The translations under genes and the position numbers were made by a program. From a virus: 56,335 nt of DNA. The notes under the pieces are model-generated. The model did not search any database and was not told where the DNA came from. It worked only from the letters and a program-made list of their open reading frames with translations. The stretch is taken from IMG/VR virus record IMGVR_UViG_3300045988_137693, one strand, 5' to 3'. This document shows positions 1-55,946 of this stretch, in pieces; the first letter of the stretch is position 1; each line of letters opens with the position of its first letter.

Positions 1-85
1 ATTTTTTTTTTTCGCGCATGACACATGTCCTTTATTGAAGAAATTCAACAATATCAAAGGAGTAATCATGCTTATCATCGACAAG
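1..85. repeat. Terminal overlap; bases 1-85 are identical to 56251-56335 (circular closure of the assembly or a short terminal redundancy)
   Basis: Read directly: both ends carry a+11t+cgcgcatgacacatgtcctttattgaag...cttatcatcgacaag. Confidence 0.9.
13..42 (+). promoter_or_regulatory. Conserved promoter-like box (CGCG-N12-CCTTTAATGA-GAAC family), copy 1
   Basis: cgcgcatgacacatgtCCTTTATTGAagaa, about 25 nt upstream of the AAAGGAG RBS and ATG at 68. Confidence 0.55.
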
Positions 86-322
86 ATTTTGAACCGAACC
101 GAGTCTTTCACTGCCGATGGGTATTGCAAGGACCAAGATCAAGTGAATACGATTCTTAACACAGTCGGCTCTTTACCGTACGTAAAGAGCTATGACCATG
201 CCATAGTAACGTATCCATTTTACGATCATCCAACCTTGTACATAACCATCACTACGTGGGGACACGGGCGTCGAGATCAAATCGCCAAAAAGATCGCTGA
301 AACCATGTATATTGATGAATGA
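68..322 (+). CDS. Hypothetical early protein (84 aa)
   Basis: ATG 68 lies 6 nt after the aaaggag RBS. The tracked ORF 35..322 starts inside the promoter box, so it was trimmed. Confidence 0.6.
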   Translation: MLIIDKILNRTESFTADGYCKDQDQVNTILNTVGSLPYVKSYDHAIVTYPFYDHPTLYITITTWGHGRRDQIAKKIAETMYIDE

Positions 323-327
323 TCATC

Positions 328-365
328 AAAGCCCAAGTCGCACATGCGGCTTTGGCTTTATATTT
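328..365 (+). terminator. Intrinsic terminator, conserved stem-loop family (AAGCC..GTCGCACATGCGGC..GGCTT + T-run)
   Basis: aaagcccaagtcgcacatgcggctttggctttatattt. Confidence 0.7.
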
Positions 366-370
366 GCAGT

Positions 371-400
371 CGCGAATGAAACATACCCTTTAATGAGAAC
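371..400 (+). promoter_or_regulatory. Conserved promoter-like box, copy 2
   Basis: cgcgaatgaaacatacCCTTTAATGAgaac. Confidence 0.55.
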
Positions 401-425
401 CATACCATCATTAAAGGAGAAAACC

Positions 426-512
426 ATGTTCGCTGGAATTTCCGCCATCGCTATCGCAATCGTTGCTCTCGCTGGAGAGTACTATGTGGTCGCTTTGACG
501 CAAGAACACTGA
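426..512 (+). CDS. Small hydrophobic peptide (28 aa)
   Basis: aaaggag RBS then ATG 426: MFAGISAIAIAIVALAGEYYVVALTQEH. The upstream part of tracked ORF 312..512 spans a terminator and promoter box. Confidence 0.45.
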   Translation: MFAGISAIAIAIVALAGEYYVVALTQEH

Positions 513-625
513 ACACCATTTCCTCTAATCAGGAATGTTCAATAGAAGCAGAGCCATCTGCTTTGCTTCTTGTCCGATGATGCGTATGGTTTATATTTTT
601 TGGGCAAGAGGTTTGATGATGTATT

Positions 626-655
626 CGCGAAAGAATCATGGTCCTTAATGAGAAG
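626..655 (+). promoter_or_regulatory. Conserved promoter-like box, copy 3 (one T shorter)
   Basis: cgcgaaagaatcatggtCCTTAATGAgaag. Confidence 0.5.
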
Positions 656-680
656 CTATATATCAACCAAAGGAGTTATT

Positions 681-785
681 ATGGACCTCATCAAGACTAT
701 TTTCAAGACCGTCGTCTGGGGCGCAATCGCCATCATCGCTATATTCGTTTTTGCGATTGCCCTCATCGTCTGCGGATTGTTCTAG
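681..785 (+). CDS. Small membrane peptide (34 aa)
   Basis: aaaggag RBS then ATG 681: MDLIKTIFKTVVWGAIAIIAIFVFAIALIVCGLF. Confidence 0.5.
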   Translation: MDLIKTIFKTVVWGAIAIIAIFVFAIALIVCGLF

Positions 786-807
786 CTTGATCAATCCTAA
801 TAATGAC

Positions 808-836
808 AAGCCGTTACCCACACGGCTTCTCATTTA
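808..836 (+). terminator. Possible intrinsic terminator
   Basis: Stem aagccgt/acggctt with a 7-nt loop, followed by ctcatttat. Confidence 0.4.
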
Positions 837-908
837 TCCGATATGTCGAGTATAGCCGTAACGTCACGTACCACCACTGAGACCGGACATGGCGTTTATA
901 TTTTTTTT

Positions 909-938
909 CGCGCATGAATCATCGCCTTTAATGACAAC
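909..938 (+). promoter_or_regulatory. Conserved promoter-like box, copy 4
   Basis: cgcgcatgaatcatcgCCTTTAATGAcaac, preceded by a T-run. Confidence 0.55.
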
Positions 939-957
939 ATAACCGAAAGGAGCAAAC

Positions 958-1353
958 ATGTCCAATCAATCAAAGAGCATTAATCAGAAGTTCGATGAAC
1001 AGATCAATGCGTATTTGGATCGTCTCAAGGAGGAGATGAATCCGGAGAACGAATCCGATTTGAACGACGATTTGACAAGGACTTCCGAAGTCACAAGAGA
1101 CACTCTTGATGGCGACGGCAACGTCACGAGTTCGGTTGTGGAACGTCACGATGAAATGACGAACCACAATCTGGAATCGCTGAAGTCGCTGGTCGCCGTC
1201 AAGAACGACTATAATGACCATCAGAAGAGCCTGATCGAAACCGTCGTGAAAGCCGGAGTCTCGCTCGCTGGAATCGTCATCCTGCTGGGATTCGAAGCAA
1301 ATCATACCATCAGTTCAAGAAGTCTCGGGTTTCTGCCCAAACCGAAGATCTGA
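958..1353 (+). CDS. Hypothetical protein, acidic N-terminal part with a C-terminal transmembrane segment
   Basis: 131-aa ORF, aaaggag RBS, hydrophobic stretch VVKAGVSLAGIVILLGF. Confidence 0.65.
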   Translation: MSNQSKSINQKFDEQINAYLDRLKEEMNPENESDLNDDLTRTSEVTRDTLDGDGNVTSSVVERHDEMTNHNLESLKSLVAVKNDYNDHQKSLIETVVKAGVSLAGIVILLGFEANHTISSRSLGFLPKPKI

Positions 1354-1378
1354 CATGTAATCTATAGGATTACGTCAT

Positions 1379-1414
1379 AGCCTGAGTCGCACATGCGGCT
1401 TTGGCTTTTTTTTT
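1379..1414 (+). terminator. Intrinsic terminator, conserved stem-loop family
   Basis: agcctgagtcgcacatgcggctttggct followed by t9. Confidence 0.75.
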
Positions 1415-1496
1415 CGATGCCAAGAGCATATTATGTTCATCGTCATTGCCGCGTTCATTTTTCGCGATTGTCCTCATCAGCACCTGTCCATGGCGC

Positions 1497-1526
1497 CGCG
1501 ATTCATCCATGTCCTTTAATGACCGA
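1497..1526 (+). promoter_or_regulatory. Conserved promoter-like box, copy 5
   Basis: cgcgattcatccatgtCCTTTAATGAccga. Confidence 0.5.
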
Positions 1527-1549
1527 ATAATCTACAAAAAAGGAGAAAC

Positions 1550-1816
1550 ATGGATATCAAGACAACATCCAAGAATCTGTTCGGCACCGCAAAGGACCGC
1601 GTCAAGGAACTTTGGGACAAAGAACAGGAAGAGGACAATGTTGATCTCGTGATCCGTCGTCTCAACGAAGGATATTACGATCAACTGCCGAATGGCCAAG
1701 AACGCAAACACCATGCTGTGTGTATTGTCATGGACAAGCTCGGAACCGCAAGTCTACAGCTTGACGTCGTACGACGTTATCTGAAAGCATTGTCGGACCA
1801 AGCCTACCACGACTGA
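1550..1816 (+). CDS. Hypothetical protein (88 aa)
   Basis: ORF with aaaaggag RBS. Confidence 0.65.
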   Translation: MDIKTTSKNLFGTAKDRVKELWDKEQEEDNVDLVIRRLNEGYYDQLPNGQERKHHAVCIVMDKLGTASLQLDVVRRYLKALSDQAYHD

Positions 1817-1826
1817 CACATTGCTG

Positions 1827-1860
1827 GCGAATGACACTTGGCCATTCGCTTTTTATTTTT
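1827..1860 (+). terminator. Intrinsic terminator
   Basis: Stem gcgaatg/cattcgc, then tttttattttt. Confidence 0.65.
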
Positions 1861-1871
1861 AGGAGTAAACC

Positions 1872-2129
1872 ATGGCAAGAAGACCAGTCGGACGACTTAA
1901 TTTCACTCGCAAATATCATAACAAGATATCGCCTCATATTTCAGGACCAAAAATCGCTCTGAATATGCTCTATGCTTGGATGCTTGGACGTGATATTCCT
2001 TGCAGACTATATGAGCGTCGCATTGATATTCCGATTGAAGCCTGGGAAGAGTACGATGTTCAGATTATGGACGGACTTGACGCGATCGACAATATATTCC
2101 ATGCCAATTTCCAGGTAAGGAAGTGGTAA
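1872..2129 (+). CDS. Hypothetical protein (85 aa)
   Basis: ORF with taggag RBS. Confidence 0.6.
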   Translation: MARRPVGRLNFTRKYHNKISPHISGPKIALNMLYAWMLGRDIPCRLYERRIDIPIEAWEEYDVQIMDGLDAIDNIFHANFQVRKW

Positions 2130-2130
2130 T

Positions 2131-2802
2131 ATGACCGGTGCTTATACCAATCATATCGTCCTTCTCGGCAAGCAGGGTTCCGGTAAGACGTCCATCGCCG
2201 AAGAACTTGCTCGTCGAGGGTTTCAGCGCGTCGTATCGGTGACCACACGTCCTCCTCGTGACAATGAAGAGGATGGTGTCGATTACTGGTTCGTGGACGA
2301 TGCCGAATTCGATGCTGCTTTGCCGGATTTGGTGGCCGTTCGAGAATACCGGACCGTATTCGGTACGTGGCGTTACGGCGTGAATCTTCAGGATATCAAT
2401 GCTGATGACGACACTGTGACTATTCTCGATCCGACTGGATATTTGACCATTAAAGACCGCATCACCGATCGATTCGGAGTCTATCTGCATATCGACGACA
2501 ATATTCGATATCAAAGACTGCTCCTTCGAGGAGACGATCCGGAGGAAATCAGTCGTAGGGAACGCGACGATGCCGCCCAGTTCGCCGTACTCGAAGAACG
2601 GCTTACCGATGTCGTGGACATGATGTCCAATGGCAAACGATGGGTCAATTTCGAGGAATTCTCGAAAGGTGGATACGATACCAGTCGAACCGTGACCGAA
2701 GAAACCGATCGGATTCTACGATATATGAACGCGTTCAATCGCGGAGAAATTAATTATGAACGAGCGCCACAACCGGTGTTCAATCATGATCCGGAATTCT
2801 GA
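2131..2802 (+). CDS. Guanylate-kinase-like nucleotide kinase (P-loop)
   Basis: GKQGSGKTS P-loop, then VSVTTRPPRDNEEDGVDYWFV and WRYGV, the pattern of the guanylate kinase family. Confidence 0.65.
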   Translation: MTGAYTNHIVLLGKQGSGKTSIAEELARRGFQRVVSVTTRPPRDNEEDGVDYWFVDDAEFDAALPDLVAVREYRTVFGTWRYGVNLQDINADDDTVTILDPTGYLTIKDRITDRFGVYLHIDDNIRYQRLLLRGDDPEEISRRERDDAAQFAVLEERLTDVVDMMSNGKRWVNFEEFSKGGYDTSRTVTEETDRILRYMNAFNRGEINYERAPQPVFNHDPEF

Positions 2803-2822
2803 TCATAACTAAGGAGCAAAAC

Positions 2823-2993
2823 ATGAGAAATAAAATCGAATTGTATCGTGAAGCACGACTCTGGATTACCAAGGTCATTATCCCATTGGCTGGAATGGCG
2901 ACATTATATTTCAGCAATCCTGACAATCGTGCCGACTTCAAAACTCGTTTTCTGAAATCAAGACTTGAAAAGAAATTTGGAGGTTTATTATGA
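2823..2993 (+). CDS. Small hypothetical protein (56 aa, one hydrophobic segment)
   Basis: Below the ORF-track cutoff. aaggag RBS, ATG 2823, ATGA overlap with the next gene. Confidence 0.45.
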   Translation: MRNKIELYREARLWITKVIIPLAGMATLYFSNPDNRADFKTRFLKSRLEKKFGGLL

Positions 2994-3376
2994 GTTGGGA
3001 TAACCCGAAAGAATACGGCGTATATTTAAGCGAAGGCGAGCAGGAAGTCCATTTTCCCATCGGATTGGCTTTCGATAGCGAGCAAATTCCTGAAGGAAAA
3101 CAGGCTCCGCTCAAGACACTCGAAGAAGCGGCCGAATTGACGGAAGCAATCAAAGACCAGCTGAAAGGACAGAATGATCCAGAAGCCGATTATGAATCGC
3201 TTCGTCAGCATTCCCTCGAAGAATTCTGCGATGTATACCAGACGTTGGTGAACATCGCATTCGCTTTCGGATTTTCCCAGACCGAGATCGAGGACGCTTA
3301 TATGAAGAATGTTCGTCGTAACGATGAACGAGGACGTTATCCTTCAAATGAATTGGAGGAAAGTTGGCTTGGCTGA
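2990..3376 (+). CDS. Possible MazG-like / all-alpha NTP pyrophosphohydrolase
   Basis: EEFCDVYQTLVNIAFAFGFSQTEIEDAYMKNVRRNDERG resembles the C-terminal helix pair of MazG-type enzymes. Weak call made by eye. Confidence 0.4.
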   Translation: MSWDNPKEYGVYLSEGEQEVHFPIGLAFDSEQIPEGKQAPLKTLEEAAELTEAIKDQLKGQNDPEADYESLRQHSLEEFCDVYQTLVNIAFAFGFSQTEIEDAYMKNVRRNDERGRYPSNELEESWLG

Positions 3377-3603
3377 AACAGTACTTCCAGATCGGTTACG
3401 TTACGGTGGTTAAGGCATATGCCAAAACCATTGCCGCCGAATGCAAGCTGTTAGGCGCGATCTATAATTCAGGTCACGTTAAAAACGTGATGATCATGAA
3501 TCGCGAATCCGATGGCGTATACACCATACGAGTCGAAACCAGTGTGCTTACGACCCCATTCGTCTTGCGGAAAAGGATCGCCAAACAACTGGCGGAGTTC
3601 TAG
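3364..3603 (+). CDS. Hypothetical protein (79 aa); TTG start is uncertain
   Basis: ORF follows a ggagga RBS with only a 3-nt spacer. Confidence 0.4.
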   Translation: MAWLKQYFQIGYVTVVKAYAKTIAAECKLLGAIYNSGHVKNVMIMNRESDGVYTIRVETSVLTTPFVLRKRIAKQLAEF

Positions 3604-3613
3604 ACGCTGTAAA

Positions 3614-3643
3614 CGCGAACCATACATCCCCCTTAATGAGAAC
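3614..3643 (+). promoter_or_regulatory. Conserved promoter-like box, copy 6
   Basis: cgcgaaccatacatccCCCTTAATGAgaac. Confidence 0.55.
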
Positions 3644-3671: not shown

Positions 3672-3929
3672 ATGGAAGATCAGAACAAGGAAACCACCGA
3701 AGTCGTCGAGACCGAGGAGAAGAAGCCCAACAAGATCGTCCAGTTCGTCAAAGATCATAAGGACCGTATCAGGGATATCACCATTGGAGCCGCTGCCGCC
3801 GCAGGACTCGCATTGCTGATTCACCTGGGAAAGTCCGAAGATGTTGACGATGAGGACGACGATTGGGACTATTCCTCATCCGACGAATCGAATTCCAACG
3901 CTGAATCCACAGATTCCTCGCAAGAGTGA
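3672..3929 (+). CDS. Hypothetical acidic protein with a central transmembrane segment
   Basis: ATG 3672 after an aaaggaa RBS; ITIGAAAAAGLALLIHL, then an acidic DDEDDDWDYSSSDES tail. Confidence 0.6.
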   Translation: MEDQNKETTEVVETEEKKPNKIVQFVKDHKDRIRDITIGAAAAAGLALLIHLGKSEDVDDEDDDWDYSSSDESNSNAESTDSSQE

Positions 3930-3939
3930 ATTGTTCTAC

Positions 3940-3977
3940 AAGCCTGAGTCGCACATGCGGCTTTGGCTTTATATTTT
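3940..3977 (+). terminator. Intrinsic terminator, conserved stem-loop family
   Basis: aagcctgagtcgcacatgcggctttggctttatatttt. Confidence 0.75.
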
Positions 3978-4001
3978 CGATCGTTCATAAGAAAGGTTGT
4001 T

Positions 4002-4757
4002 ATGGTGAGTAATATCATCACCAACGGACGAAAATTTCTTGGAAGAAACTCCCATACGATTCTCGCAGGCACGGCAGTGGTTGGTGTGATCGGAACCGCC
4101 GTTATGGCGTCACGAGATACCATTCAGGCGAATGATCGTCTGCTGGAGTATCGCATGGAGCTCGATGGCAAGCCATATGACAAGAAGGAGCTCGTCAAAC
4201 GAGTTGCTCCATGTTATATTCCGACCGCGTTGACGGTCGGTGCGACGATCACCGCGATTATCGGCGCCCACCAGACCGCCACACATAAGATCATCGCGTA
4301 TTCCTCGGCATATACCATGGCCCAGGAAGCCGCGACCATCTATCGTGATAAGGTGCACGAGATCGTTGGCGAAAAGAAAGCCAAGGAAATCGAAGCGGCC
4401 GTAGCCAAGGACCAGATCGCCAAATCCAAAGACGACGCTTCGGCCGTGGTCATCGGCGACGGCAATGTGCTGTGCATGGACGGATTCAGCGGACGGTTCT
4501 TCCCGTCGACACTGGAGAAGATCCGCAAGGCCCAGAATGACGTCAATTACAAGATGAATGCTGAAATGTATGCATCGTTGAATGACTTCTATGAGGCCTT
4601 GGATCTGCCGTATATCGGTTGTGGTGATGATCTCGGTTGGACGTCGGAACATCCGATCGAACTGAGTTTCAGCACTACACTGACCCCTGATGGGAAACCG
4701 GCACTTGTGGTGAATTTCCACGAATCGCCGATGGCTGACTATCGCAATCTTATTTGA
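4002..4757 (+). CDS. Membrane-anchored protein, paralog A of the 6844..7758 product
   Basis: N-terminal TM segment (ILAGTAVVGVIGTAVMA). Shared blocks with 6844..7758 include SLNDFYEALDLP...LGWT versus FLNDVYRLLGLP...LGWI. Confidence 0.7.
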   Translation: MVSNIITNGRKFLGRNSHTILAGTAVVGVIGTAVMASRDTIQANDRLLEYRMELDGKPYDKKELVKRVAPCYIPTALTVGATITAIIGAHQTATHKIIAYSSAYTMAQEAATIYRDKVHEIVGEKKAKEIEAAVAKDQIAKSKDDASAVVIGDGNVLCMDGFSGRFFPSTLEKIRKAQNDVNYKMNAEMYASLNDFYEALDLPYIGCGDDLGWTSEHPIELSFSTTLTPDGKPALVVNFHESPMADYRNLI

Positions 4758-6843: not shown

Positions 6844-7758
6844 ATGTCCGTTAAAAGTACATTGGTCAAAACCGCAGCTAAGAGCGGTCTCTTTCTGAAG
6901 AAACATAGCCCGGAAATCCTGACCTATTCTGGTCTGGTACTTGGCGTCGCCGCAACCGTCACCGCATGTCGGTCGACCATGCATATCGATGACGTGAAGA
7001 AGAATCATGAAACCGAGATGAGCCGCGTCGAAACCCTCGAAAAGATGGTGGACAACGGCGAGCTCGATGACGGCGATTTCACGGTCAATGAAGCGGCTTC
7101 GTCGAAGCAGATCATCTACATGCGTACCACCGTGGCTTATGCGAAGCTCTATGCTCCGACCATTATTCTGACCGGACTGAGCATCGCCTGCATTCTGTCG
7201 GCACACAACATCCTCCAGACTCGATACACGGCTGTGGCTTCGGCATTCGCTGCTGTAACCGCCAAGTTCAGCGATTACCGCGAACGTGTCGTAGCCCAGT
7301 ATGGCGAAGAGGTCGATCAGAAGTTCTATCAGAACATCGACACCGTCGAAGTCGCCGACGACAAAGGCAAGGTCATCGAGACCAAGAAGGAGCAGAACGT
7401 CCAGACACTGAGCCCGACCGATAAATGGTTCGGACCGGATTCTCAGATCTGGGATAACGAATCCCCGGATATGAATACCGTGATGCTGAAGTCCGCACTG
7501 GATCGTGCTCAGAACAAGCTCGATTACACCGGACATCTGTTCCTGAACGATGTCTATCGTCTGCTCGGTCTTCCTGATACCAAGGAAGGCGCCGTGCTCG
7601 GTTGGATCAATACGCCTGATCGCGATTCGATTGTCGACTTCGGCGTGTTCGGTTGCAGCGATGATCCCTGGGACAATGTCAAGGATTGCCCGTGGGATGG
7701 CAAGGAAGAGATCCTGCTTCAGTTCAACTGCGACGGCATCGTCTACGATCAGATCTGA
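6844..7758 (+). CDS. Membrane-anchored protein, paralog B of the 4002..4757 product
   Basis: N-terminal TM segment (ILTYSGLVLGVAATVTA) and conserved blocks shared with 4002..4757. Confidence 0.7.
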   Translation: MSVKSTLVKTAAKSGLFLKKHSPEILTYSGLVLGVAATVTACRSTMHIDDVKKNHETEMSRVETLEKMVDNGELDDGDFTVNEAASSKQIIYMRTTVAYAKLYAPTIILTGLSIACILSAHNILQTRYTAVASAFAAVTAKFSDYRERVVAQYGEEVDQKFYQNIDTVEVADDKGKVIETKKEQNVQTLSPTDKWFGPDSQIWDNESPDMNTVMLKSALDRAQNKLDYTGHLFLNDVYRLLGLPDTKEGAVLGWINTPDRDSIVDFGVFGCSDDPWDNVKDCPWDGKEEILLQFNCDGIVYDQI

Positions 7759-10041: not shown

Positions 10042-10053
10042 AAAGGAGTGGGT

Positions 10054-13000
10054 ATGGACCAAATACGAGTGACTGAAGTCAAAAGCACCAAAACCGCAAC
10101 CAAGGTCATTGCAAATCCTAGGGCCCGTGGATTCAAGGATCTTATTGTCAAGGGTGGACAGTTCTACGCCGTATATGATCCAGATACGCACCTGTGGTCC
10201 AGAAGTGTCGGCCGTCTCTCCGAACTCATTGATAGGGATATCAGCGAGTATATCGCAACGCATTCGGACAAGACCTTGACTCCGGAATACATGGACAATA
10301 TGTCCAATGGACAATGGAACCGATATTTGTCGCAACTGAAGAACCTCGATGACAGCAGCATCATGCTGGATCAGAAGGTTATATTTGACAACGACGAAGT
10401 CGATCGCGACGACTACGCCTCGTTCAAATTACCGTATGATCTCATCGAGGGTCCGACACCGAACTACGATCGCCTGATGGAAACGATCTATGACCCGGAC
10501 GAGCGTCGAAAACTCGAATGGGGCATAGGTCTGATCGTGGATGGTAAGGACCAGAAACGTATTCAGAAATTCTTCGCCATTACCGGTGCTCCCGGTACCG
10601 GTAAATCGACGATTCTGAACATCATCCAGGAACTGTTCGGGAAGTACGTTTCGTTCTTCAATGCCAAGGAACTTGGTCAGGGATATCAATTCGCCACTGC
10701 TGCGTTCAAAAACGCTCCGCTCATCGCCATTCAAAGCGACGGCGATCTCTCAAAGATCGATGATAATTCATTGTTGAACACCATTGTTTCGCATGAATAT
10801 ATCAAAGTCAATGAGAAAGGCGTCAAGCAGTATGATATTCCGATCAAGACGATGCTGTTCATGGCTTCGAATAAACCAGTGAAGATCACAGACTCGAAAT
10901 CGGGTCTGATTCGAAGGTTGATTGACGTCTATCCATCAGGACGAAAACTCAGCAATGCTGAATATTTCGAAGCCATGGACGGTATCAAATTCGAACTCGG
11001 TGCGATCGCCCACCATTGCCGAGAGGTCTATCAGGAAATGGGTCCGAACGCATATGGCAATTACATACCAACCGAAATGGTGGCCAGAACGAATGATATG
11101 TATTCGTTCTTGTCAAGCGTTCTCGACCAATTCGAAGATGACGATCATATCGATGGTCTCGAACTTTGGCGTCAATATAAGGTTTGGTGCGATGAAGGTA
11201 ACGTGACCATGCGCATGAAACGTGATGACTTCCTGTTCGAATTGTCATCATATTTCAACAAGACGACCGATAACATCGTCAATGGTCGCAAATCCACTCG
11301 TAACACCGGTTTCGAGGGAATCCGTTGGGATAAATTCGAGAAAGTGGAGAAACCGAAGCTGATCGAAGCGAGAAAACTCGAACTTAATTCGACCGATTCG
11401 ACTTTCGACCACATGGCTCAGGATTGGCCGGCCCAATACGCCGCCGATAATCCAACCGGAGGACCTCGGTTGCCTTGGGATCAGGTAACCACCACATTGA
11501 AAGATGTGGACACCACCAAACTGCATTGGGTACGAGTACCTGAGAATCATATCGTCATCGACTTTGATCTCAAGGGCGATGATGGCGAGAAGAGCCTGGA
11601 ACGCAATCTTGCCGAAGCTGCGAAGTATCCGCCGACGTATGCGGAATTGAGCAAATCCGGTAAGGGCGTGCACCTGCATTATATTTACGATGGTGACGTG
11701 ACGAGGCTCAAACCTCTGATCGACATCAACGTGGAATGCAAGGTGTATCGAGGGAAGTCGGCATTGCGAAGGAAACTCAGCACATGCAACGATCTCGAAG
11801 TCGCGCATATTTCCAGCGGTCTTCCTCTCAAAGGAGATAAAACCATGATCAATGAGAAAGCGATCAAAGATGAGCAGCATCTTCGCAATCTTATCAAAGG
11901 AAACCTAAGAAAGGAATATTGTCCCGGAACCAAGCCATCGATCGACTTCATCTGTAAGTTGCTGGACGAAGCATACGAGTCTGGCATCCAGTATAACGTC
12001 GAAGACATGCGTCTTGATATTCTCAATTTCGCCATGAACTCCACGCATAATCGAGATTATTGCATGAAGGTTGTGGCGAATATGAAGCTTCGTTCCGACG
12101 AACCCGACAGCTTGGAACCGCCGAAGCATACCGGGACACCTGATATTCTGACGTTCTACGACGTCGAGGTGTTCCCGAATCTGTTCATGATCTGCTTCAA
12201 AGACGCAGGTGATGAGAAGGATCATCCGGTGAAGACCTTGATCAATCCAGATCCGAAAGATGTTCGTAAGCTCTGCGGCAAGGCACTGGTCGGATTCAAC
12301 AACCGACGATACGACAATCATATGCTCTACGCATGGGGTTGGCTCGGTTATGACAACCAACAGCTCTACAACCTGTCTCAGGATATCGTGGCTGGTGGGC
12401 CTCGCAGTCGAAACGCCATGTTCCAGAATGCCTACAACATCTCCTATACGGATATCTACGACTTCTCCGCAAAGAAGCAGTCGTTGAAGAAGTGGGAGAT
12501 CGAACTCGGGATCGATCATCACGAACTCGGCATGCCGTGGGACAAGCCGGTCGATCCGAAACTCTGGGATCTGGTGCAATCATATTGCGAGGATGATGTC
12601 CGAGCGACGGAAGCGGTGTTCAACCATCTTCATGAAGATTTCGTGGCCCGTCAAGGTCTGGCGAATCTGTCCGGCCTCACGCCGAATGATTCGACGAATC
12701 AACATACGGCCCAGATCATATTCGGAGACGCGAAGAATCCGCAGAAGGAATTCCCGTTCCCGGATCTGAGCGAAACCTTTCCCGGGTATACCTTCGACAA
12801 ATTCGCTGATAAAGATCACAAATCCAAGTATTTGGGCGAGTATCCTTCCGAAGGCGGATATGTGTGGGTATACGGTATGGCTAACGGCGACAATGGTCCA
12901 TATTACGGACGTCAGATCCAATGGTCCATGACCGGGAAGGACCGACTCGAACGATATCGTGAGGTCTATCGATCTCAGGATATGGATTTCGACACCATGC

Positions 13001-14154
13001 ACCCCGATCTGGCGAAGCGTCTCGAAGGATATTCATATGACGGTGCTGATCAGTTCATGCCTGAACTTCCAGACAAGACGCTCGGTGGTATGTTCGGCAA
13101 CGTCGGTTTGCTTGATGTGACCAGTCTGCACCCGTCGAGTCTTGAGGACATGAATTTCTTTGGTCCATACACCAAACGATTCAGCGACATCAAGGCCGCT
13201 CGTGTTGATATCAAGCACGGTGATCTCGAATCCGCTCGTCGACGTATGGATGGTGCTTTGGCTCCACTGCTTAAGGAGGGTGAAAACACCAAGTCGCTTG
13301 CACAGGCACTGAAGATCGTGATCAATTCGGTATACGGTTTGACCAGTGCGAAGTTCCCGACAAAGTTCAACGATGTCGGGAATGGAGCCAACGATCGCAA
13401 TGTCGACAACAAGGTCGCGAAACGCGGCGCCTTGTTCATGCTTCTGCTCAAGCAAAAGGTTATGGAGCTTGGCTACACAGTCGTGCATATCAAAACCGAT
13501 TCGATCAAGATAGCCGATATCGATGAATATGTTGTGACATTTGTCAATGACATGGGAGCGAAATATGGCTACGGATTCGAACTCGAAGCGATCTACGACA
13601 AGATGTGTATCGTCAACAAAGCGACGTACATCGCCCATCATTGTTACGGCGACGACGGGCACGACGCCGCATCGCATGGTGGTTGGGCGGCAACGGGTGC
13701 ACAGTTCGCAGTGCCCTACGTCTTCAAGACGCTGTTCTCTCATGAAACGATTGATTTCAAGGATCTTTGCGAAACCAAATCCGCCACGACATCGATCTAC
13801 CTAGACTTCAACGAGGGGCTACCCGAGGACGAACATCGCTATGATTTCGTCGGCAAGGTAAGCGCCTTCAGTCCGGTCCAACCGGGTTGTGGCGGAGGCC
13901 TGCTGGTCCGTGACAACGGCAACGGCGGTTACGCCGCGCTGTCCGGCACCAAAGGTTATCGCTGGAAGGAATCGAGCGTTCTCCGAGACGGTCACAAACA
14001 AGATGAAGTCGATTACACCTACTACGAACATCTCGCCGATGAGGCACGAGATGATATTTCGCAGTATGGTGATTTCGACTGGCTGGTAAGCGGCGAACCG
14101 TATGTTTCGCCGAATCCTGGAAGCAATAATCTGGTTGCTTCCTTGACTCGATAA
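10054..14154 (+). CDS. Fused replicase: D5/SF3-like P-loop NTPase + archaeo-eukaryotic (prim-pol type) primase + family-B DNA polymerase with 3'-5' exonuclease
   Basis: Walker A ITGAPGTGKST. Primase signatures VIDFDLKGDDGEKS and SKSGKGVHLHY. Exonuclease motifs FYDVEVF, FNNRRYDNHMLY, SYCEDDVRAT. PolB motifs A LLDVTSLHPSS, B KIVINSVYG, C HIKTDS. Confidence 0.9.
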   Translation: MDQIRVTEVKSTKTATKVIANPRARGFKDLIVKGGQFYAVYDPDTHLWSRSVGRLSELIDRDISEYIATHSDKTLTPEYMDNMSNGQWNRYLSQLKNLDDSSIMLDQKVIFDNDEVDRDDYASFKLPYDLIEGPTPNYDRLMETIYDPDERRKLEWGIGLIVDGKDQKRIQKFFAITGAPGTGKSTILNIIQELFGKYVSFFNAKELGQGYQFATAAFKNAPLIAIQSDGDLSKIDDNSLLNTIVSHEYIKVNEKGVKQYDIPIKTMLFMASNKPVKITDSKSGLIRRLIDVYPSGRKLSNAEYFEAMDGIKFELGAIAHHCREVYQEMGPNAYGNYIPTEMVARTNDMYSFLSSVLDQFEDDDHIDGLELWRQYKVWCDEGNVTMRMKRDDFLFELSSYFNKTTDNIVNGRKSTRNTGFEGIRWDKFEKVEKPKLIEARKLELNSTDSTFDHMAQDWPAQYAADNPTGGPRLPWDQVTTTLKDVDTTKLHWVRVPENHIVIDFDLKGDDGEKSLERNLAEAAKYPPTYAELSKSGKGVHLHYIYDGDVTRLKPLIDINVECKVYRGKSALRRKLSTCNDLEVAHISSGLPLKGDKTMINEKAIKDEQHLRNLIKGNLRKEYCPGTKPSIDFICKLLDEAYESGIQYNVEDMRLDILNFAMNSTHNRDYCMKVVANMKLRSDEPDSLEPPKHTGTPDILTFYDVEVFPNLFMICFKDAGDEKDHPVKTLINPDPKDVRKLCGKALVGFNNRRYDNHMLYAWGWLGYDNQQLYNLSQDIVAGGPRSRNAMFQNAYNISYTDIYDFSAKKQSLKKWEIELGIDHHELGMPWDKPVDPKLWDLVQSYCEDDVRATEAVFNHLHEDFVARQGLANLSGLTPNDSTNQHTAQIIFGDAKNPQKEFPFPDLSETFPGYTFDKFADKDHKSKYLGEYPSEGGYVWVYGMANGDNGPYYGRQIQWSMTGKDRLERYREVYRSQDMDFDTMHPDLAKRLEGYSYDGADQFMPELPDKTLGGMFGNVGLLDVTSLHPSSLEDMNFFGPYTKRFSDIKAARVDIKHGDLESARRRMDGALAPLLKEGENTKSLAQALKIVINSVYGLTSAKFPTKFNDVGNGANDRNVDNKVAKRGALFMLLLKQKVMELGYTVVHIKTDSIKIADIDEYVVTFVNDMGAKYGYGFELEAIYDKMCIVNKATYIAHHCYGDDGHDAASHGGWAATGAQFAVPYVFKTLFSHETIDFKDLCETKSATTSIYLDFNEGLPEDEHRYDFVGKVSAFSPVQPGCGGGLLVRDNGNGGYAALSGTKGYRWKESSVLRDGHKQDEVDYTYYEHLADEARDDISQYGDFDWLVSGEPYVSPNPGSNNLVASLTR

Positions 14155-15202: not shown

Positions 15203-15232
15203 CGCGAACCAGACATGGCCTTTAATGAGAAT
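15203..15232 (+). promoter_or_regulatory. Conserved promoter-like box, copy 7
   Basis: cgcgaaccagacatggCCTTTAATGAgaat. Confidence 0.55.
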
Positions 15233-15258: not shown

Positions 15259-15630
15259 ATGACCGATATTTATGCACACATTACTATCATAGACACCAAC
15301 ACCGGTGAAATCATTCCGAGAAATCGAAATGGCTGGGAGTTGATGGCCGCTGTATTTATGATTGGTTATAATTGGCAAGCCGATCGATTCAATGAACAAA
15401 TTGATTCGTGGAATTCGGAATTCGATAAGACTCACCCAAACCATGGTGATCTTATGAATAACGATGAATACCATCAATTCATTCTGGATCGTTGGCAACC
15501 GATTATTGACCAATACAACAATGAGATGGCCAAATACACAGATTCAGTCAAATTTATTATCGAGGATTTCACTGTCTGCATGGTGAATGACTATGGACAT
15601 AAAGTCGGAATGCAACTCGTAACCGAGTAA
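15259..15630 (+). CDS. Hypothetical protein (123 aa)
   Basis: ORF with aaaggag RBS. Confidence 0.65.
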   Translation: MTDIYAHITIIDTNTGEIIPRNRNGWELMAAVFMIGYNWQADRFNEQIDSWNSEFDKTHPNHGDLMNNDEYHQFILDRWQPIIDQYNNEMAKYTDSVKFIIEDFTVCMVNDYGHKVGMQLVTE

Positions 15631-15638
15631 CATTCATA

Positions 15639-15676
15639 AAGAGTGGACCGCACATGCGGTCTGCTCTTTGTCTTTT
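15639..15676 (+). terminator. Intrinsic terminator, related stem-loop (CCGCACATGCGG core)
   Basis: agagtggaccgcacatgcggtctgctctttgtctttt. Confidence 0.7.
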
Positions 15677-15685
15677 GGCTATATT

Positions 15686-15715
15686 CGCGAACCAGACATG
15701 TCCTTTAATGAGAAC
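15686..15715 (+). promoter_or_regulatory. Conserved promoter-like box, copy 8
   Basis: cgcgaaccagacatgtCCTTTAATGAgaac. Confidence 0.55.
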
Positions 15716-15735: not shown

Positions 15736-15951
15736 ATGTCTGTTGATATTTGCCAAGTCATCGCTGATTTCATTCTCATCACGATTGTCGTGCTGGGGAT
15801 CGAAGCGGGCATTCAAGATCGTATCAAGCATAAGGATATGACCTGGTTTGCCTGGATCGGTCGCCACTGGAATAATCGTAAGGAGAAGAAAGCAGCCAAC
15901 AAACTGACAAAGAAACAAGACATCAACGAAACCACTTTCGCTGAGAAGTAA
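15736..15951 (+). CDS. Small membrane protein (71 aa)
   Basis: ORF with aaaggag RBS and an N-terminal TM segment. Confidence 0.6.
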   Translation: MSVDICQVIADFILITIVVLGIEAGIQDRIKHKDMTWFAWIGRHWNNRKEKKAANKLTKKQDINETTFAEK

Positions 15952-15955: not shown

Positions 15956-15993
15956 AAGCCTAAGTCGCACATGCGGCTTTGGCTTTGCATTTT
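15956..15993 (+). terminator. Intrinsic terminator, conserved stem-loop family
   Basis: aagcctaagtcgcacatgcggctttggctttgcatttt. Confidence 0.75.
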
Positions 15994-22059: not shown

Positions 22060-22668
22060 ATGCGTATCAACGAATTCGAACTGATCAACCCCATGAGTGA
22101 TGTACAGAATACCATTACAAGATTGGTGAATCATCGTGGGTCATGCGATGATCTGTCGCCGAGACATGAGATCATCATGAGTGATATTCTGCTGTTGCAG
22201 ACGGATCTTGCACATCCTGAGATATCATATGATATGACCGAGGCGAAGATCAATGCGTATTGTCCCCGCTGTAGGAGACATGGGTCTGGATGGATCGAAA
22301 CCAATGGATGGTTTTCAGCGGTGTCGCCATCACGCGGAGTAGTGATTCGTCATGCGATGGATGAGCTTCCTGCTCGTATGGATAGGCATGGTCGTGTTTG
22401 CGGGCATCATCGTTTGATGATGTCTTCCGCGGTTCGATCGAAGGATATCGCATTCCATGTCAGGGAGGAGAACACCAGGAATTATATCTGGTTCAAGAAG
22501 CGTAAGGCTTTGGCGAAGCAGTGGTTTCCGTTGAGTAGCGGTGACGAACAGTACCATTTGGTATGGTGTCCGGACTGTTTTGCGATGACTTGCGTGGACG
22601 TCGGAAAGATGTCTTTTACGCGGTACGACCCCTCAAACGCCAGTTTTAGAGGGGACGAATGGTACTAA
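22060..22668 (+). CDS. CxxC-motif protein (two CxxC pairs, 202 aa)
   Basis: AYCPRCRRHG and VWCPDCFAM. Confidence 0.6.
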   Translation: MRINEFELINPMSDVQNTITRLVNHRGSCDDLSPRHEIIMSDILLLQTDLAHPEISYDMTEAKINAYCPRCRRHGSGWIETNGWFSAVSPSRGVVIRHAMDELPARMDRHGRVCGHHRLMMSSAVRSKDIAFHVREENTRNYIWFKKRKALAKQWFPLSSGDEQYHLVWCPDCFAMTCVDVGKMSFTRYDPSNASFRGDEWY

Positions 22669-22682
22669 AAAGCACTTCCGAA

Positions 22683-23052
22683 TGTGTACAATTTGTGTGA
22701 CAAAAGCAGTTCTAAATGTGTACAATTTGTGTGACAAAATCGATGTGTGTGTACAATTTGTGTGACATGAGCGAAAATGCCCTTGATGCGGTAAAAACGC
22801 CAAAATCGGCTTTGTCACACAAATTGTACACACAAATCGGTTTTGTCACACAAATTGTACACATTTGAAAACGTCTTTTAGGGCCTGAAAACGTTGAAAT
22901 TTCAACGTTTTTGGGATTTTGAGGGTGTTTTTCTGTGTGTACAATTTCTGTGACGTACTTCTTATTCCGGTGAAAAAAGAAATATAATCATTATAATATA
23001 AAAATAAGTAAAGTATAACCTACGTCACACAAATTGTACACATTTGAAAACC
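22683..23052. repeat. Iteron cluster, palindrome and AT-rich tract; putative replication origin or regulatory hub
   Basis: The 20-mer TGTGTACAATTTGTGTGACA occurs on + at 22683, 22717 and 22748, and degenerate at 22936. Its reverse complement occurs at 22813, 22844 and 23023. A 24-bp perfect palindrome aaaacgttgaaatttcaacgtttt lies at 22888-22911, and an AT-rich tract at 22971-23020. Confidence 0.6.
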
Positions 23053-23076
23053 ACTTTTTTGCAGAAAGGAACCGTC

Positions 23077-23941: not shown

Positions 23942-24024
23942 CATCGTCTCGCACATTTCCCATAATGGATAGAATATACATATAACTACAGGTATCTCCC
24001 GTATTTTACGGTCGGAGGTTTTCC

Positions 24025-27770: not shown

Positions 27771-28076
27771 ATGACATTATCACCACTAGAGCAAGCATGT
27801 CTTAGGCATGATGTATTGGTAACTACAGTGGACAATCCTATCAATCCATTCGTTGATTTCGAAGGATGGATGAATCTAGACATTGCCATGGGCTATGATA
27901 CATGTGGTCTAGTTAGCCAAATGTTCATGGGTTATGATAACATGTCTGATGAGGATCAAGCAATCGAGTATGCTCGAATGATTCGAGATCTTTTTGCTCA
28001 TGATCCTTTGGGTGTGTACACATTAGCCAAGCGTCCATCATGGCGTGAAGTTCCATCTGCTGCATCAAACGAATAG
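27771..28076 (+). CDS. Hypothetical protein (101 aa)
   Basis: ORF closely following the previous gene. Confidence 0.55.
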   Translation: MTLSPLEQACLRHDVLVTTVDNPINPFVDFEGWMNLDIAMGYDTCGLVSQMFMGYDNMSDEDQAIEYARMIRDLFAHDPLGVYTLAKRPSWREVPSAASNE

Positions 28077-28740
28077 CATGATGCGATTGCATGATGTGAT
28101 TGCATCATGTTGCTTGTCATCAACAACATATGCAATGACAAACATAACAACAATGCATGATGCTTGATGTATGTTACATGATGAATGATGAATGATAAGA
28201 TTCGTATAAGCAATGAATCACATTCGCTCATATGAATCTTATCATTCATCAATCATTCATCAATCATTCATCAATCGTTGTCAATCATCGTTGTTTATTG
28301 TCATTGCAAATCGAAATCAATCAAATGCGAATGAATTAACTTTCATTCAACTGCAACCAACTATTGGATGAATTGTAAATGTAATTTATAATTCATAGCA
28401 AAGAATAATTTTGAATTTAGATTCGTTCTAATTCAAAATTGTTGAGATGCCCAACCCTAGGATCTCTTTTGAGATACCGGGGGAGGGGGTCGTGAAAAAC
28501 ACACCCCCTATGGCATCGCCCGACAACTCGAAAATACCCCGCGGGGGATATTTTGGAATTGCTTTTTAGCTCTCGTAGGGTTCTCCGGGGGTGTTGGGTG
28601 CTCTCCGAATTAGTTTCCGATACATGTACCGCTGCGAAACGGTGGAAACACTCCTTGGATCGAGCATGATTCTCCCCAATGCCCCTAGAAAACTCTGCGA
28701 TAGCGTTGAGAATCCGCTAATAAAAGGAGATGATGTCCCT
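28077..28740. other. Non-coding, repeat-dense region upstream of terS; putative packaging recognition (cos/pac) region
   Basis: GCATGATG repeats at 28073-28112. 17-bp perfect inverted repeat at 28187-28203 / 28234-28250. ATCATTCATCA x3 at 28241-28273. More than 10 (A)TGAAT/ATTCAT motifs. 11-bp inverted repeat at 28407-28417 / 28430-28440. G5/C5 hairpin at 28484-28509. Palindrome CCCCGCGGGG at 28537-28546. Confidence 0.55.
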
Positions 28741-34731: not shown

Positions 34732-34771
34732 AACGAAGAAATAACATTAATTCGAGAAAGGAGTGATCCAT

Positions 34772-40542: not shown

Positions 40543-40926
40543 ATGACGGGTATCAGGGTTGAGGTCAATGGCGACTTCAGTGGCCTTGATCGTTTTATCA
40601 CTAACATCAAAGAGCAACGGTATCTCAAAGTACTGGATCGAATCGGACGTCGCGGCGTTGATGCTTTGTCCAACGCCACACCTGTTGATAGTGGCGCGAC
40701 AGCCACTGCCTGGGGGTATGAGGTCCATAGGTCGAAACATCGATCCGAAATTATTTTTACCAATTCCAACGTCAACGATGGCGTGAACATCGCCATTATT
40801 CTCCAGTATGGACACGGCACCGGAACTGGTGGATACGTCGCTGGACGCGATTACATCAACCCGGCGCTTGCAAAAACATTTGATCAATTGGCCGATGAGG
40901 CCTGGAGGGCGGTGACTAATGGCTAA
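40543..40926 (+). CDS. HK97 gp10-like tail component
   Basis: ALSNATPVDSGATATAWGYEV...ILQYGHGT pattern. Confidence 0.5.
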   Translation: MTGIRVEVNGDFSGLDRFITNIKEQRYLKVLDRIGRRGVDALSNATPVDSGATATAWGYEVHRSKHRSEIIFTNSNVNDGVNIAIILQYGHGTGTGGYVAGRDYINPALAKTFDQLADEAWRAVTNG

Positions 40927-55188: not shown

Positions 55189-55230
55189 GACGTCGCGTGA
55201 CATACATGGCTCTCAATGAAAGGAGCCATT

Positions 55231-55530
55231 ATGAACAACGACAAGATCTCTAATGGACACTATGAAGCACAACTCAAGAACGGATACTTAAGGATCAAGG
55301 GTGTAACACATCTTGGATGCTTAGCACTTACCGGTACCGTATATGACGGTGATATTCGTATACCATGCGAAGTCATCGAAAAAGACGGACTGGTAAGATG
55401 TGTAAGTTTCAAGCTGAAATATATGCCTTGGTTTGCTGGTAGAAGTTTTGTTAAGGGTTTGAAATTCATCATGTTCCCAAAAAGGATCTGTAAATCGAAA
55501 GCCATCATAGAGGCAATCATTTCAGAATAA
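55231..55530 (+). CDS. Hypothetical protein (99 aa)
   Basis: aaaggag RBS then ATG 55231. Confidence 0.55.
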   Translation: MNNDKISNGHYEAQLKNGYLRIKGVTHLGCLALTGTVYDGDIRIPCEVIEKDGLVRCVSFKLKYMPWFAGRSFVKGLKFIMFPKRICKSKAIIEAIISE

Positions 55531-55903: not shown

Positions 55904-55909
55904 TATCGT

Positions 55910-55946
55910 ATAAGAGCCTATGCCACGCGCATGGGCTCTTATATTT
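55910..55946 (+). terminator. Intrinsic terminator, near-duplicate of the one at 55531
   Basis: Stem ataagagcc/gggctcttat, then atatttt. Confidence 0.7.

Follow-up and report, generated by a model that had tools for sequence, protein, structure and literature searches.

A 30-nt box recurs in front of small genes in a 56,335-nt stretch of viral DNA (IMG/VR record IMGVR_UViG_3300045988_137693; this whole stretch is called the window here), which raises the question of what reads it: the host RNA polymerase, perhaps together with a phage regulator, or a polymerase that the phage itself encodes.

Copies and anatomy of the box

The box has the frame CGCG-N6-ACAT-N2-CC-TTTAAT-GA. A scan of the whole window for CGCGMA-N10-CCTTTAATGA with at most two mismatches gives 10 matches, every one on the + strand (0.06 expected in shuffled sequence, maximum 1), at exactly the coordinates where a preliminary description of this DNA had placed the box. 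Its count of at least nine sites stands, since nine strong sites are distinct; the copies at 13 and 56263 are a single site, because window positions 1-85 are identical to 56251-56335, an 85-nt assembly overlap. The range 13-3643, proposed as the box region, contains six copies, but the others lie outside it. A position weight matrix gives the strong sites 36-47 bits and adds one degenerate box at 55194 (19 bits), while elsewhere in the window scores stay under 2 bits on the + strand and peak at 3.2 bits on the - strand; as the matrix was trained on the box sites themselves, this gap speaks for the absence of further copies and not for independent significance. Strong, degenerate and half-box sites are all on the + strand and all intergenic, which bears out the strand and position specificity that had been expected of the element.

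13 to 42 (= 56263-56292), + strand: box CGCGCATGACACATGTCCTTTATTGAAGAA, before gene 68-322 (84 aa)
371 to 400, + strand: box CGCGAATGAAACATACCCTTTAATGAGAAC, before the gene of a 28-aa hydrophobic peptide, 426-512
626 to 655, + strand: box CGCGAAAGAATCATGGTCCTTAATGAGAAG, before the gene of a 34-aa membrane peptide, 681-785
909 to 938, + strand: box CGCGCATGAATCATCGCCTTTAATGACAAC, before gene 958-1353 (131 aa)
1497 to 1526, + strand: box CGCGATTCATCCATGTCCTTTAATGACCGA, before gene 1550-1816 (88 aa)
3614 to 3643, + strand: box CGCGAACCATACATCCCCCTTAATGAGAAC, before gene 3672-3929 (85 aa), where the replication-gene block begins
15203 to 15232, + strand: box CGCGAACCAGACATGGCCTTTAATGAGAAT, before gene 15259-15630 (123 aa)
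15686 to 15715, + strand: box CGCGAACCAGACATGTCCTTTAATGAGAAC, before gene 15736-15951 (71 aa)
23943 to 23968, + strand: half-box ATCGTCTCGCACATTTCCCATAATGG, heading an operon whose last gene is the polymerase gene described below
55194 to 55223, + strand: degenerate box CGCGTGACATACATGGCTCTCAATGAAAGG (19 bits) that runs at its 3' end into the ribosome-binding site of gene 55231-55530
55955 to 55984, + strand: box CGCGAATCGTACATGGCCTTTAATGACAAG, before gene 56009-56218 (69 aa)

The conserved blocks are CGCG (box positions 1-4), ACA(T) (11-14), CC (17-18) and an AT-rich hexamer T(T/A)TAAT (19-24), followed by an invariant GA (25-26) and a purine-rich stretch. In every copy CC begins 16 nt after the first base of CGCG, so that a single 17-nt exception reported earlier falls away. 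The CAT that had been called conserved does occupy positions 12-14, but what the relatives conserve is the triplet ACA one position earlier (11-13). The boxes at 626 and 3614 have a C for one T of TTTAAT. The half-box at 23943 keeps ACAT, CC and the AT-rich hexamer in register but lacks CGCG at positions 1-4; it lies about 1020 nt 5' of the polymerase start codon, at the spot where relatives have a full box before a VRR-Nuc / Cas4 / polymerase operon.

Between the end of the box and the start codon there are 23-32 nt (11 nt at 55194), with a strong Shine-Dalgarno sequence in between, and the genes behind the boxes are small (28-131 aa), several of them hydrophobic. Hairpins accompany them:

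337 to 352, + strand: terminator-type hairpin of conserved sequence GTCGCACATGCGGCTT with a T-rich tail
1386-1401, 3948-3963, 15964-15979 and 56228-56243: further copies of the GTCGCACATGCGGCTT hairpin
15636 to 15671, + strand: strong hairpin of 16 pairs with a T-run, downstream of gene 15259-15630 and ahead of the box at 15686
545-564, 808-828 and 55908-55944: hairpins resembling that at 15636-15671, just 5' of other boxes

Wherever a GTCGCACATGCGGCTT hairpin stands, the gene before it is the first one after a box, and the hairpin completes a cassette of probable promoter, gene and terminator. The boxed genes may not be "early", as they had been labelled; the window ends are an assembly overlap, and the true genome ends probably lie near 28.5 kb.

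Asymmetric sites that all point the same way, occupy short intergenic gaps and adjoin hairpins could also be something other than promoters, such as oriented regulator sites (stoperator-like) or cassette-exchange junctions similar to the promoter-stem-loop units of T4, and the fact that different genes stand behind the boxes of close relatives would suit such a reading. This is quite improbable, however, given the fixed distance to the ribosome-binding site, the AT-rich hexamer with a purine start context behind it, and the tRNA-like genes that in relatives begin only 1-6 nt past the box. Moreover, most relatives are lytic and lack an integrase (the Faecalibacterium phage FP_oengus has one; neither integrase nor repressor was noticed among the annotated ORFs of the window, whose annotation is partial), and these one-strand genomes show no second class of repeated promoters. 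That the box acts as a transcribed RNA leader structure or as a single-stranded N4-type hairpin promoter is hardly credible: some copies contain short palindromes such as CATG...CATG, but the ten folded copies share no structure (z-scores -0.4 to +1.5), and the variable positions do not preserve pairing. An N4-type promoter hairpin (5-7 bp, 3-nt loop) is disfavoured by the absence of any shared hairpin.

The box, sigma-70 promoters and the relatives

Like sigma-70 and sigma-A promoters, the box has a TATAAT-like, AT-rich hexamer suitably spaced from the gene, but it conserves CGCG, ACA and CC, which are positions that sigma does not read. The best match to a -35 hexamer like TTGACA, at spacers of 16-18 nt, reaches 1-4 of six bases per box, mostly 2-3; the extended -10 element TGn is absent from the box, where positions 16-17 are GC, TC, CC or GT; and a sigma-70 scan of the window called none of the boxes. 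The hexamer occurs in the window as TTTAAT, TTTATT and CTTAAT. Its second base corresponds to the -11 A, the most conserved base of sigma-70 promoters; it is T in nine of the ten distinct full-length copies, C at 55194 and A in the half-box, and it varies between A and T inside single related genomes. Without -35, without TGn and with T in place of the essential -11 A, the box does not match a sigma-70 promoter, in agreement with the earlier impression that it is unlike a plain sigma-70 or sigA promoter. Nor does TTTAAT have to be a -10 hexamer that is followed by a start after 5-10 nt: the invariant GA behind it, together with the tRNA-like genes so close to the box, suggests that the start may be at or beside the GA.

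The 26-nt frame of the box is also found in phages of Bifidobacterium, Arthrobacter, Gordonia, Streptomyces, Faecalibacterium and Lactococcus, hosts that span two phyla. The cultured relatives that carry it are BitterVaud1 (Bifidobacterium), Circum (Arthrobacter), Kerry (Gordonia), HotFries (Streptomyces), FP_oengus (Faecalibacterium) and P078 (Lactococcus), and all six encode a homologue of the 933-aa ORF of the window. Kerry has 10 in-frame copies of CGCAgaaatTACACGTCCTATAATGAGACCCC on the + strand and 0 on the - strand; P078 has at least 10 copies, without CGCG. The strict pattern CGCGAANNNNACANNNCCTTTAATGA occurs in 106 stretches of viral contigs and in only 16 stretches of 596 Gb of bacterial genomes, about 4 of these 16 being expected by chance according to our own estimate. 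Many small viral fragments with the strict pattern also carry a homologue of the polymerase or of the pol/primase.

Could the host polymerase nevertheless be the reader? Sigma-A RNA polymerase would then recognize a -10-only element, CGCG, ACA and CC would be the site of a phage regulator (an activator or a repressor, perhaps formed by the HTH modules of the 933-aa protein), and the phage polymerase would transcribe other genes, for instance the late ones. BitterVaud1, Circum, Kerry and P078 have an exact TATAAT as their hexamer, and small genes in clusters, individually furnished with promoter and terminator, are a usual feature of takeover modules that the host transcribes. In most relatives the polymerase operon itself stands behind a full box, an arrangement most easily understood if the host enzyme reads the boxes. 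Late genes are what the phage polymerase YonO transcribes (PMC5467207), and the authors who described the Gordonia phages Vardy and Conley called the motif a sigma-70 -10 element (PMC9671010, PMC10868162). Host recognition nevertheless appears unlikely, although it deserves consideration. It leaves unexplained that both -35 and TGn are missing, that the -11 base is T in most window copies and many relatives and varies between A and T within genomes, that GA is invariant right after the hexamer and actinophage relatives have CCCC at positions 5-9 nt past it, and that positions of no use to sigma are kept at fixed spacing across two host phyla. The near absence of the pattern from bacterial genomes and the failure to find a conserved promoter candidate for the phage polymerase before late genes also speak against it. 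Of the two readings offered in the preliminary description, the evidence thus favours a dedicated promoter for a phage factor, and a host promoter overlaid by a regulator site is the less favoured one.

No box was found before late genes, and YonO, the single characterized distant relative, transcribes late genes (PMC5467207). Both points count against reading by the phage polymerase, as does the perfect TATAAT of several relatives.

The 933-aa protein as candidate reader

24963 to 27764, + strand: putative two-barrel single-polypeptide RNA polymerase, 933 aa, proposed reader of the box

The catalytic DxDGD loop of this ORF is represented by GADFDGD at aa 540-546 (DFDGD 542-546), invariant in 34 homologues, and the ORF matches phrog_4291 with E = 0. 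An AlphaFold model (pLDDT 82) retrieves QDE-1 (E 3e-9), gp62 of Thermus phage P74-26 (6.5e-7) and RDR2 in Foldseek searches, with probability 1.00 and large subunits of cellular polymerases next, although TM-scores over the full chain reach only about 0.3. The predicted fold is that of a two-barrel RNA polymerase in which a single chain holds both double-psi beta-barrels. Three HTH modules (at about aa 49-102, 107-125 and 897-931) give weak matches to models of sigma-70 region 4. The polymerase homologue is the sole protein common to all six reference genomes with recognizable HTH domains. Conserved proteins of no assigned function, namely two DUF6353 proteins, phrog_4079, phrog_4303 and phrog_4678, could be an alternative reader or a cofactor.

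The second HTH module appears to change together with the box. Where its helix has the canonical form (E/D)Sx(V/I)R, 32 of 45 boxes begin with CGC(G/A) and 6 more with CGCT; where it is non-canonical (P078, the L200/L241/L247 lineage and L214), none of 14 boxes begins with CGC(G/A). These loci were fetched by polymerase homology and complemented by the reference genomes, and their boxes are distributed 59 to 2 between the strands. Judged from these alignments, the change in the second HTH tracks the loss of CGCG, in two to three independent lineages and by ad hoc scoring. The suspicion that had fallen on the 933-aa protein is strengthened by its predicted fold, its HTH modules and this apparent covariation.

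The closest precedent are the two-barrel polymerases of Thermus phage P23-45, the virion enzyme gp96 and the non-virion enzyme gp64, each with its own conserved promoter motif (bioRxiv 10.1101/2022.12.01.518664). As in the window, a two-barrel DFDGD polymerase goes together with a conserved motif upstream of a defined gene set and with conserved terminators nearby, and gp62 of P74-26, whose fold the window protein is predicted to share, is the homologue of gp64. Sequence similarity is very low, however, the P23-45 motifs differ (one AT-rich, one GC-rich), fused HTH modules are not reported for the P23-45 enzymes, and the tape measure protein of the window has no fused polymerase domain. YonO of the Bacillus prophage SPbeta, a siphovirus DNA-dependent RNA polymerase of about 100 kDa in a single chain, transcribes a single late operon from a single start, at a promoter yet to be defined (PMC5467207). 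By description, both YonO and the window protein are single chains tied to the multisubunit enzymes only through two barrels; in contrast to YonO, ten or more defined boxes lie in the non-structural half of the window genome.

In the cluster DJ Gordonia phages Vardy and Conley, a 43-50-bp intergenic motif with TATAAT has been described as a sigma-70 -10 element that "may regulate gene expression" (PMC9671010, PMC10868162). Compared via the DJ-type phage Kerry, it shares with the box the several co-oriented intergenic copies, the central genes for small membrane proteins and the terminators, and by sequence it is the same element in a distant relative; the window variant differs in having TTTAAT and CGCG. 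Neither the link to the polymerase gene nor the comparison across hosts was made in those reports. T7-type promoters resemble the box in their contiguous conserved 25-30 bp, with an AT-rich stretch before a purine start, and in the proposed use by one phage polymerase that needs no separate sigma factor. Their polymerase is of an unrelated fold class, however, and the box is split into blocks with variable spacers. The window has only three ORFs above 800 aa (the pol/primase, the two-barrel polymerase and the tape measure protein), and a T7-like polymerase gene (Pol I fold) is absent among them.

A model for transcription from the box

Together, our data make it probable that the box is a promoter of about 30 bp specific to this phage group, most likely recognized directly by the 933-aa RNA polymerase. 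This view draws on the number, strand and intergenic placement of the boxes with their fixed 23-32 nt spacing, on their misfit to sigma-70, on the joint conservation of box frame and polymerase homologue across hosts with the rarity of the box in bacteria, on the predicted polymerase fold, DFDGD motif, HTH modules and covariation, and on the P23-45 precedent. Initiation by this polymerase at the box, the start site and the timing are what we infer from the sequences.

In such a model, the polymerase would dock on duplex DNA via its own HTH modules. The second of these (aa ~107-125, helix ...SESTVR...) would read CGCG, and the remaining modules or the polymerase core would read ACA and CC. The AT-rich hexamer would be the melted region, with the RNA starting at, or just past, the conserved GA, and the outcome would be short leaders of 23-32 nt that bear a strong ribosome-binding site. 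With conserved hairpin terminators placed after its first gene, each unit would be an insulated promoter-gene-terminator cassette, and the longer replication block would be served by read-through. Because the box precedes the polymerase operon in most relatives, a promoter used by this polymerase only would need a seed, which could come from transcription by the host, from read-through or from polymerase that the virion brings along.

A more far-reaching version is tentative and on balance doubtful. In it, the 933-aa enzyme would be self-sufficient, with three fused sigma-like HTH heads, and the box would be the sole promoter class; the first polymerase would be brought in by the virion or made through a low level of host transcription, the operon's own box would provide positive feedback, and late genes would be reached by transcription across the joined genome ends. 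If this were true, a large group of siphoviruses of Gram-positive bacteria from gut and soil would be largely independent of host transcription. The box gives a large polymerase family a candidate promoter that can be tested.

Occurrence and setting of the box

The preliminary description had placed ten copies of a box of about 30 nt (CGCG-N6-ACAT-N2-CC-TTTAAT-GA) in the window. A pattern search with CGCGMA-N10-CCTTTAATGA, allowing at most 2 mismatches, recovered every one of them (13, 371, 626, 909, 1497, 3614, 15203, 15686, 55955 and 56263), all on the plus strand, while 0.06 matches are expected in the shuffled window, with a maximum of one. As positions 1-85 and 56251-56335 form an exact 85-nt terminal repeat, the matches at 13 and 56263 represent a single site; the repeat has the look of an overlap left by the assembly of a circular or concatemeric genome, not of a virion terminal repeat. 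A position weight matrix derived from the sites themselves was then run over both strands of the window. The sites score 36-47 bits and a degenerate copy at 55194 scores 19 bits; beyond this copy, nothing exceeds 2 bits on the plus strand or 3.2 bits on the minus strand. With all copies intergenic, the expected specificity for strand and position is borne out.

The end of the box lies 23-32 nt before a start codon (11 nt for the copy at 55194), which is preceded by a strong Shine-Dalgarno sequence in each case. The downstream genes encode products of 28-131 aa, several of them hydrophobic peptides. The boxes cluster between 55.2 and 3.6 kb, a stretch that includes the artificial junction, and two others lie at 15.2 and 15.7 kb. 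In a half-box at 23943-23968, CGCG is missing and the frame is kept by ACAT, CC and the AT-rich hexamer. Genes are encoded on the plus strand throughout. Most boxes have a hairpin with a T-run upstream, and a conserved hairpin, GTCGCACATGCGGCTT, follows the first gene behind five boxes (0.03 copies expected), so that the region reads as a row of promoter-gene-terminator cassettes. Judging from its conservation beyond structure, GTCGCACATGCGGCTT might be a termination or processing signal specific to the phage polymerase, comparable to what has been reported for P23-45.

Features of the window (genes on the plus strand)
337-352, 1386-1401, 3948-3963, 15964-15979, 56228-56243: terminator hairpin GTCGCACATGCGGCTT, sequence conserved beyond structure
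3963-4757, 6844-7758: two paralogous DUF6353 proteins of the replication block, one found in 6/6 reference genomes, the other in 5/6
10048-14154: pol/primase gene
22668-23058: non-coding iteron region, four direct and three inverted copies of about 20 nt, TGTGTACAATTTGTGTGAC
24963-27764: 933-aa protein, candidate two-barrel RNA polymerase
27771-28076: 101-aa protein (phrog_4303), directly 3' of the polymerase gene, in 6/6 reference genomes
28077-28740: non-coding stretch of 660 nt, after the small gene 3' of the polymerase gene
Rest of the genome: helicase, VRR-Nuc and Cas4-type nucleases, terminase, portal, protease-capsid fusion and 2562-aa tape measure protein

In the 647-aa ORF at 34763-36706, prohead protease and major capsid protein are apparently fused, an arrangement described for Arthrobacter phages of clusters AM and AU.

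Comparison with sigma-70 promoters

The box had been suspected not to be a plain sigma-70 promoter, and closer inspection agrees. If TTTAAT is taken as the -10 element, the best -35 matches in the window boxes reach 1-4 of 6 positions at spacers of 16-18 nt, the TGn of an extended -10 is absent from them, and the second hexamer base is T. Factors of the sigma-70 family require A as the second base of the -10 hexamer. A sigma-70 consensus scan of the window called none of the boxes. Within single related genomes, the second base can be either A or T, with the flanking T, A, T, G and A fixed; the GA right behind the hexamer is the most conserved dinucleotide of the box. In actinophage relatives, CCCC occupies the positions expected for a sigma-type start. 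These sequence features argue that the box is not a sigma-70 promoter. An RNA-structure reading was rejected, as no hairpin is common to the copies.

A real rival, which we nevertheless consider rather unlikely, is that the host reads the box as a promoter with a -10 element only, overlaid by a binding site for a phage regulator. The copies with A as second base have a host-readable hexamer, as this reading would have it; the T of the window boxes speaks against it.

In two related contigs, a tRNA-like gene starts 1-6 nt past a box (L028, 2608-2712; L043, 3019-3121), with the unusual anticodon calls tRNA-??? and tRNA-Phe(aaa). Should the box drive transcription of such a gene, initiation has to occur at or beside the GA. 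No tRNA genes were called in the window or in Lactococcus phage P078.

The 933-aa protein and the box in related phages

The other reading of the preliminary description, a dedicated promoter for the phage polymerase, is the one best supported by our data, through the co-occurrence of box and polymerase across hosts and the covariation described below. Homologues of the 933-aa protein form at least 7,800 clusters in a large protein collection; those listed are of similar length with helix-turn-helix (HTH) domains at both ends. Homologues also occur in 250 cultured-phage records (Arthrobacter, Gordonia, Streptomyces, Lactococcus, Faecalibacterium and others), usually annotated as 'helix-turn-helix DNA-binding protein'. 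The motif GADFDGD is invariant across 34 homologues, and phrog_4291 matches the protein end to end. Searching its sequence against solved structures gave nothing significant, so a fold search was needed. With the predicted model (mean pLDDT 82), this search found QDE-1 (E 3e-9), followed by gp62 of Thermus phage P74-26 (6.5e-7), a non-virion polymerase homologue, then RDR2 and cellular polymerases (large subunits). According to the model and Pfam, the HTH modules occupy about aa 49-102, 107-125 (HTH2) and 897-931. Koert et al. (bioRxiv 10.1101/842583) noted the same protein, with its HTH domains at either end, as a potential polymerase and as a hallmark of an actinophage supercluster and of Lactococcus and Faecalibacterium phages; promoters are not discussed there. 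YonO has been proven to be a polymerase, with a promoter still undefined (PMC5467207), and P23-45 sets a precedent of two-barrel phage polymerases that use motifs of their own (bioRxiv 10.1101/2022.12.01.518664). In P23-45 a polymerase is fused into the tape measure protein, whereas the 2562-aa tape measure protein of the window (40919-48607) has no such fusion; a polymerase domain there was rejected, as DxDxD is missing.

Seven reference genomes were inspected for the box, in full or in large part. The same 26-nt frame was found in every one, intergenic and co-oriented with the genes. The hosts span two phyla, with G+C contents from about 35% to about 72%.

Box in reference phages
Bifidobacterium phage BitterVaud1: CGCGA-N5-ACAT-CG-CT-TATAAT-GA
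Arthrobacter phage Circum: CGCGTAAAtTACAnGGGCTATAATGA, 9 sites
Gordonia phage Kerry: CGCAgaaatTACACGTCCTATAATGAGACCCC, 10 sites on the plus strand, 0 on the minus strand
Streptomyces phage HotFries: CGCAcgTTTTaCnnGcTTTATaaTGAGACCCCTAC
Faecalibacterium phage FP_oengus: CGCGAAAAATACAGnnTCCTTTATGR
Lactococcus phage P078: TTTAaGTTTTACATACCCTATAATGARAGG, at least 10 copies, without CGCG

The boxes of HotFries and P078 were missed by the window matrix and found by reading intergenic gaps and by repeat search. With the window pattern, exact matching across viral contigs found at least 120 stretches; among the matches listed, conservation extends to positions that the pattern does not include (ACA at 11-13, A-rich 5-7, CC, purines after GA). 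The stricter pattern CGCGAANNNNACANNNCCTTTAATGA matched 106 stretches in viral contigs; 596 Gb of bacterial genomes yielded just 16, largely from Clostridia and Lachnospiraceae assemblies, about four of them expected by chance by our own estimate. Fragments fetched around box matches, reference genomes included, contain a polymerase homologue in 18 loci and a pol/primase homologue in 38, and some of these polymerases are only 31-45% identical to the 933-aa protein. Close DNA relatives of the window were not found among cultured phages, where matches reach only 75-79% identity across some 100 nt. For Vardy and Conley, two phages of cluster DJ, an intergenic motif of 43-50 bp that includes TATAAT was reported in five copies and interpreted as a sigma-70 -10 sequence (PMC9671010, PMC10868162); judged by the Kerry copies, it is the same element. 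A 2017 survey of Arthrobacter phages mentions small membrane-protein genes, but neither the motif nor the polymerase (PMC5513430).

A separate repeat, AAGGAGTTAT, is common to ten genes of BitterVaud1 (L001, 28890-44781), nine of them with the full AAGGAGTTATCATG, which runs from the ribosome-binding site over the spacer into the start codon. Such a context for translation starts is unusually rigid, and similar strings occur in the window, e.g. AAAGGAGTTAATCATG.

Few of the non-structural proteins of the window are matched by homologues in 6/6 reference genomes: an unannotated 233-aa protein (phrog_4079), a DUF6353 protein, pol/primase, helicase, VRR-Nuc, Cas4, the polymerase and the 101-aa protein. 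Among these, only the polymerase has recognisable sequence-specific DNA-binding domains, a further link between it and the box. The 101-aa protein is a possible polymerase partner, and the conserved uncharacterised proteins could be cofactors.

For covariation, 80 loci were fetched by polymerase homology, independently of the box, and combined with the reference genomes; boxes were defined by their 3' half alone, in a stricter version for the counts since the 3'-half score gives false positives in AT-rich genomes. Box strand counts in this set are 59 versus 2. The HTH2 recognition helix is [E/D]Sx[V/I]R in nearly all homologues. With this canonical helix, 32 of 45 boxes start with CGC[GA] and 6 more with CGCT; with non-canonical helices, found in P078 (SPGSVT), in the lineage of loci L200, L241 and L247 (SAATAK) and in L214, none of 14 starts in the CGCG manner. 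These counts ignore phylogeny and amount to two to three independent lineages. Covariation is the expected outcome if the polymerase polypeptide itself reads CGCG, for which it is suggestive rather than conclusive.

Polymerase operon, genome ends and implications

The VRR-Nuc/Cas4/polymerase operon is headed by a full box in most relatives, 850-1120 nt upstream of the start codon of the polymerase; in the window this place is taken by the half-box alone. Should the boxes be read by the polymerase, the operon box would constitute positive feedback, and the first polymerase molecules would have to be supplied by host transcription, by read-through or by the virion. The literature searched yielded neither virion proteomes nor transcriptomes for relatives. 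The idea that the operon box keeps a host-readable hexamer (A second) and other boxes a T fits the window (CATAAT at 23961) but was rejected, since the operon box of many relatives is a full consensus with TTTTAT or TTTAAT. Upstream of the half-box, and close before the operon whose last gene encodes the polymerase, lies the iteron region, probably an origin of replication or an array of operators. Its AT-rich core contains a sigma-70-like GTGAAA-16-TATAAT (22970-22997).

In 24 genomes, the 1.3 kb downstream of the polymerase gene contained neither a box nor another shared promoter; the only common motifs are G-runs resembling cos/packaging signals. Late genes, which no box precedes, may be reached by read-through across joined ends, or by an unrecognised promoter. 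In the window, 28077-28740 contains CATGATG and TCATTCATCAA repeats, GGGGGAGGGGG, CCCCGCGGGGGATATTTT and the G-run motif GGGGGAGGG, the last common to 15 of 24 relatives at the same position. The stretch resembles the physical ends of HotFries and is probably a cos/packaging site. Many related contigs stop 300-400 nt past the polymerase gene. Together with the HotFries likeness and the shared G-runs, this places the true genome ends probably near 28.5 kb. The boxes would then lie in the middle of the linear genome, so that position does not make their genes "early".

The literature searched, with subscription journals outside its scope, assigns no promoter to this polymerase family and contains no link between box and polymerase, no cross-phylum conservation and no HTH covariation. 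We consider it reasonably probable that the box is a dedicated promoter for the phage-encoded polymerase. If true, this would correct its present interpretation as a plain sigma-70 -10 sequence. The family is very large. A consensus of about 30 bp and the proposed division of labour between HTH2 and CGCG open several questions to direct tests: by what means a minimal two-barrel polymerase locates promoters in the absence of sigma, how genes are timed in such phages, and whether the polymerase-promoter pair may be of use for orthogonal expression in Gram-positive bacteria.
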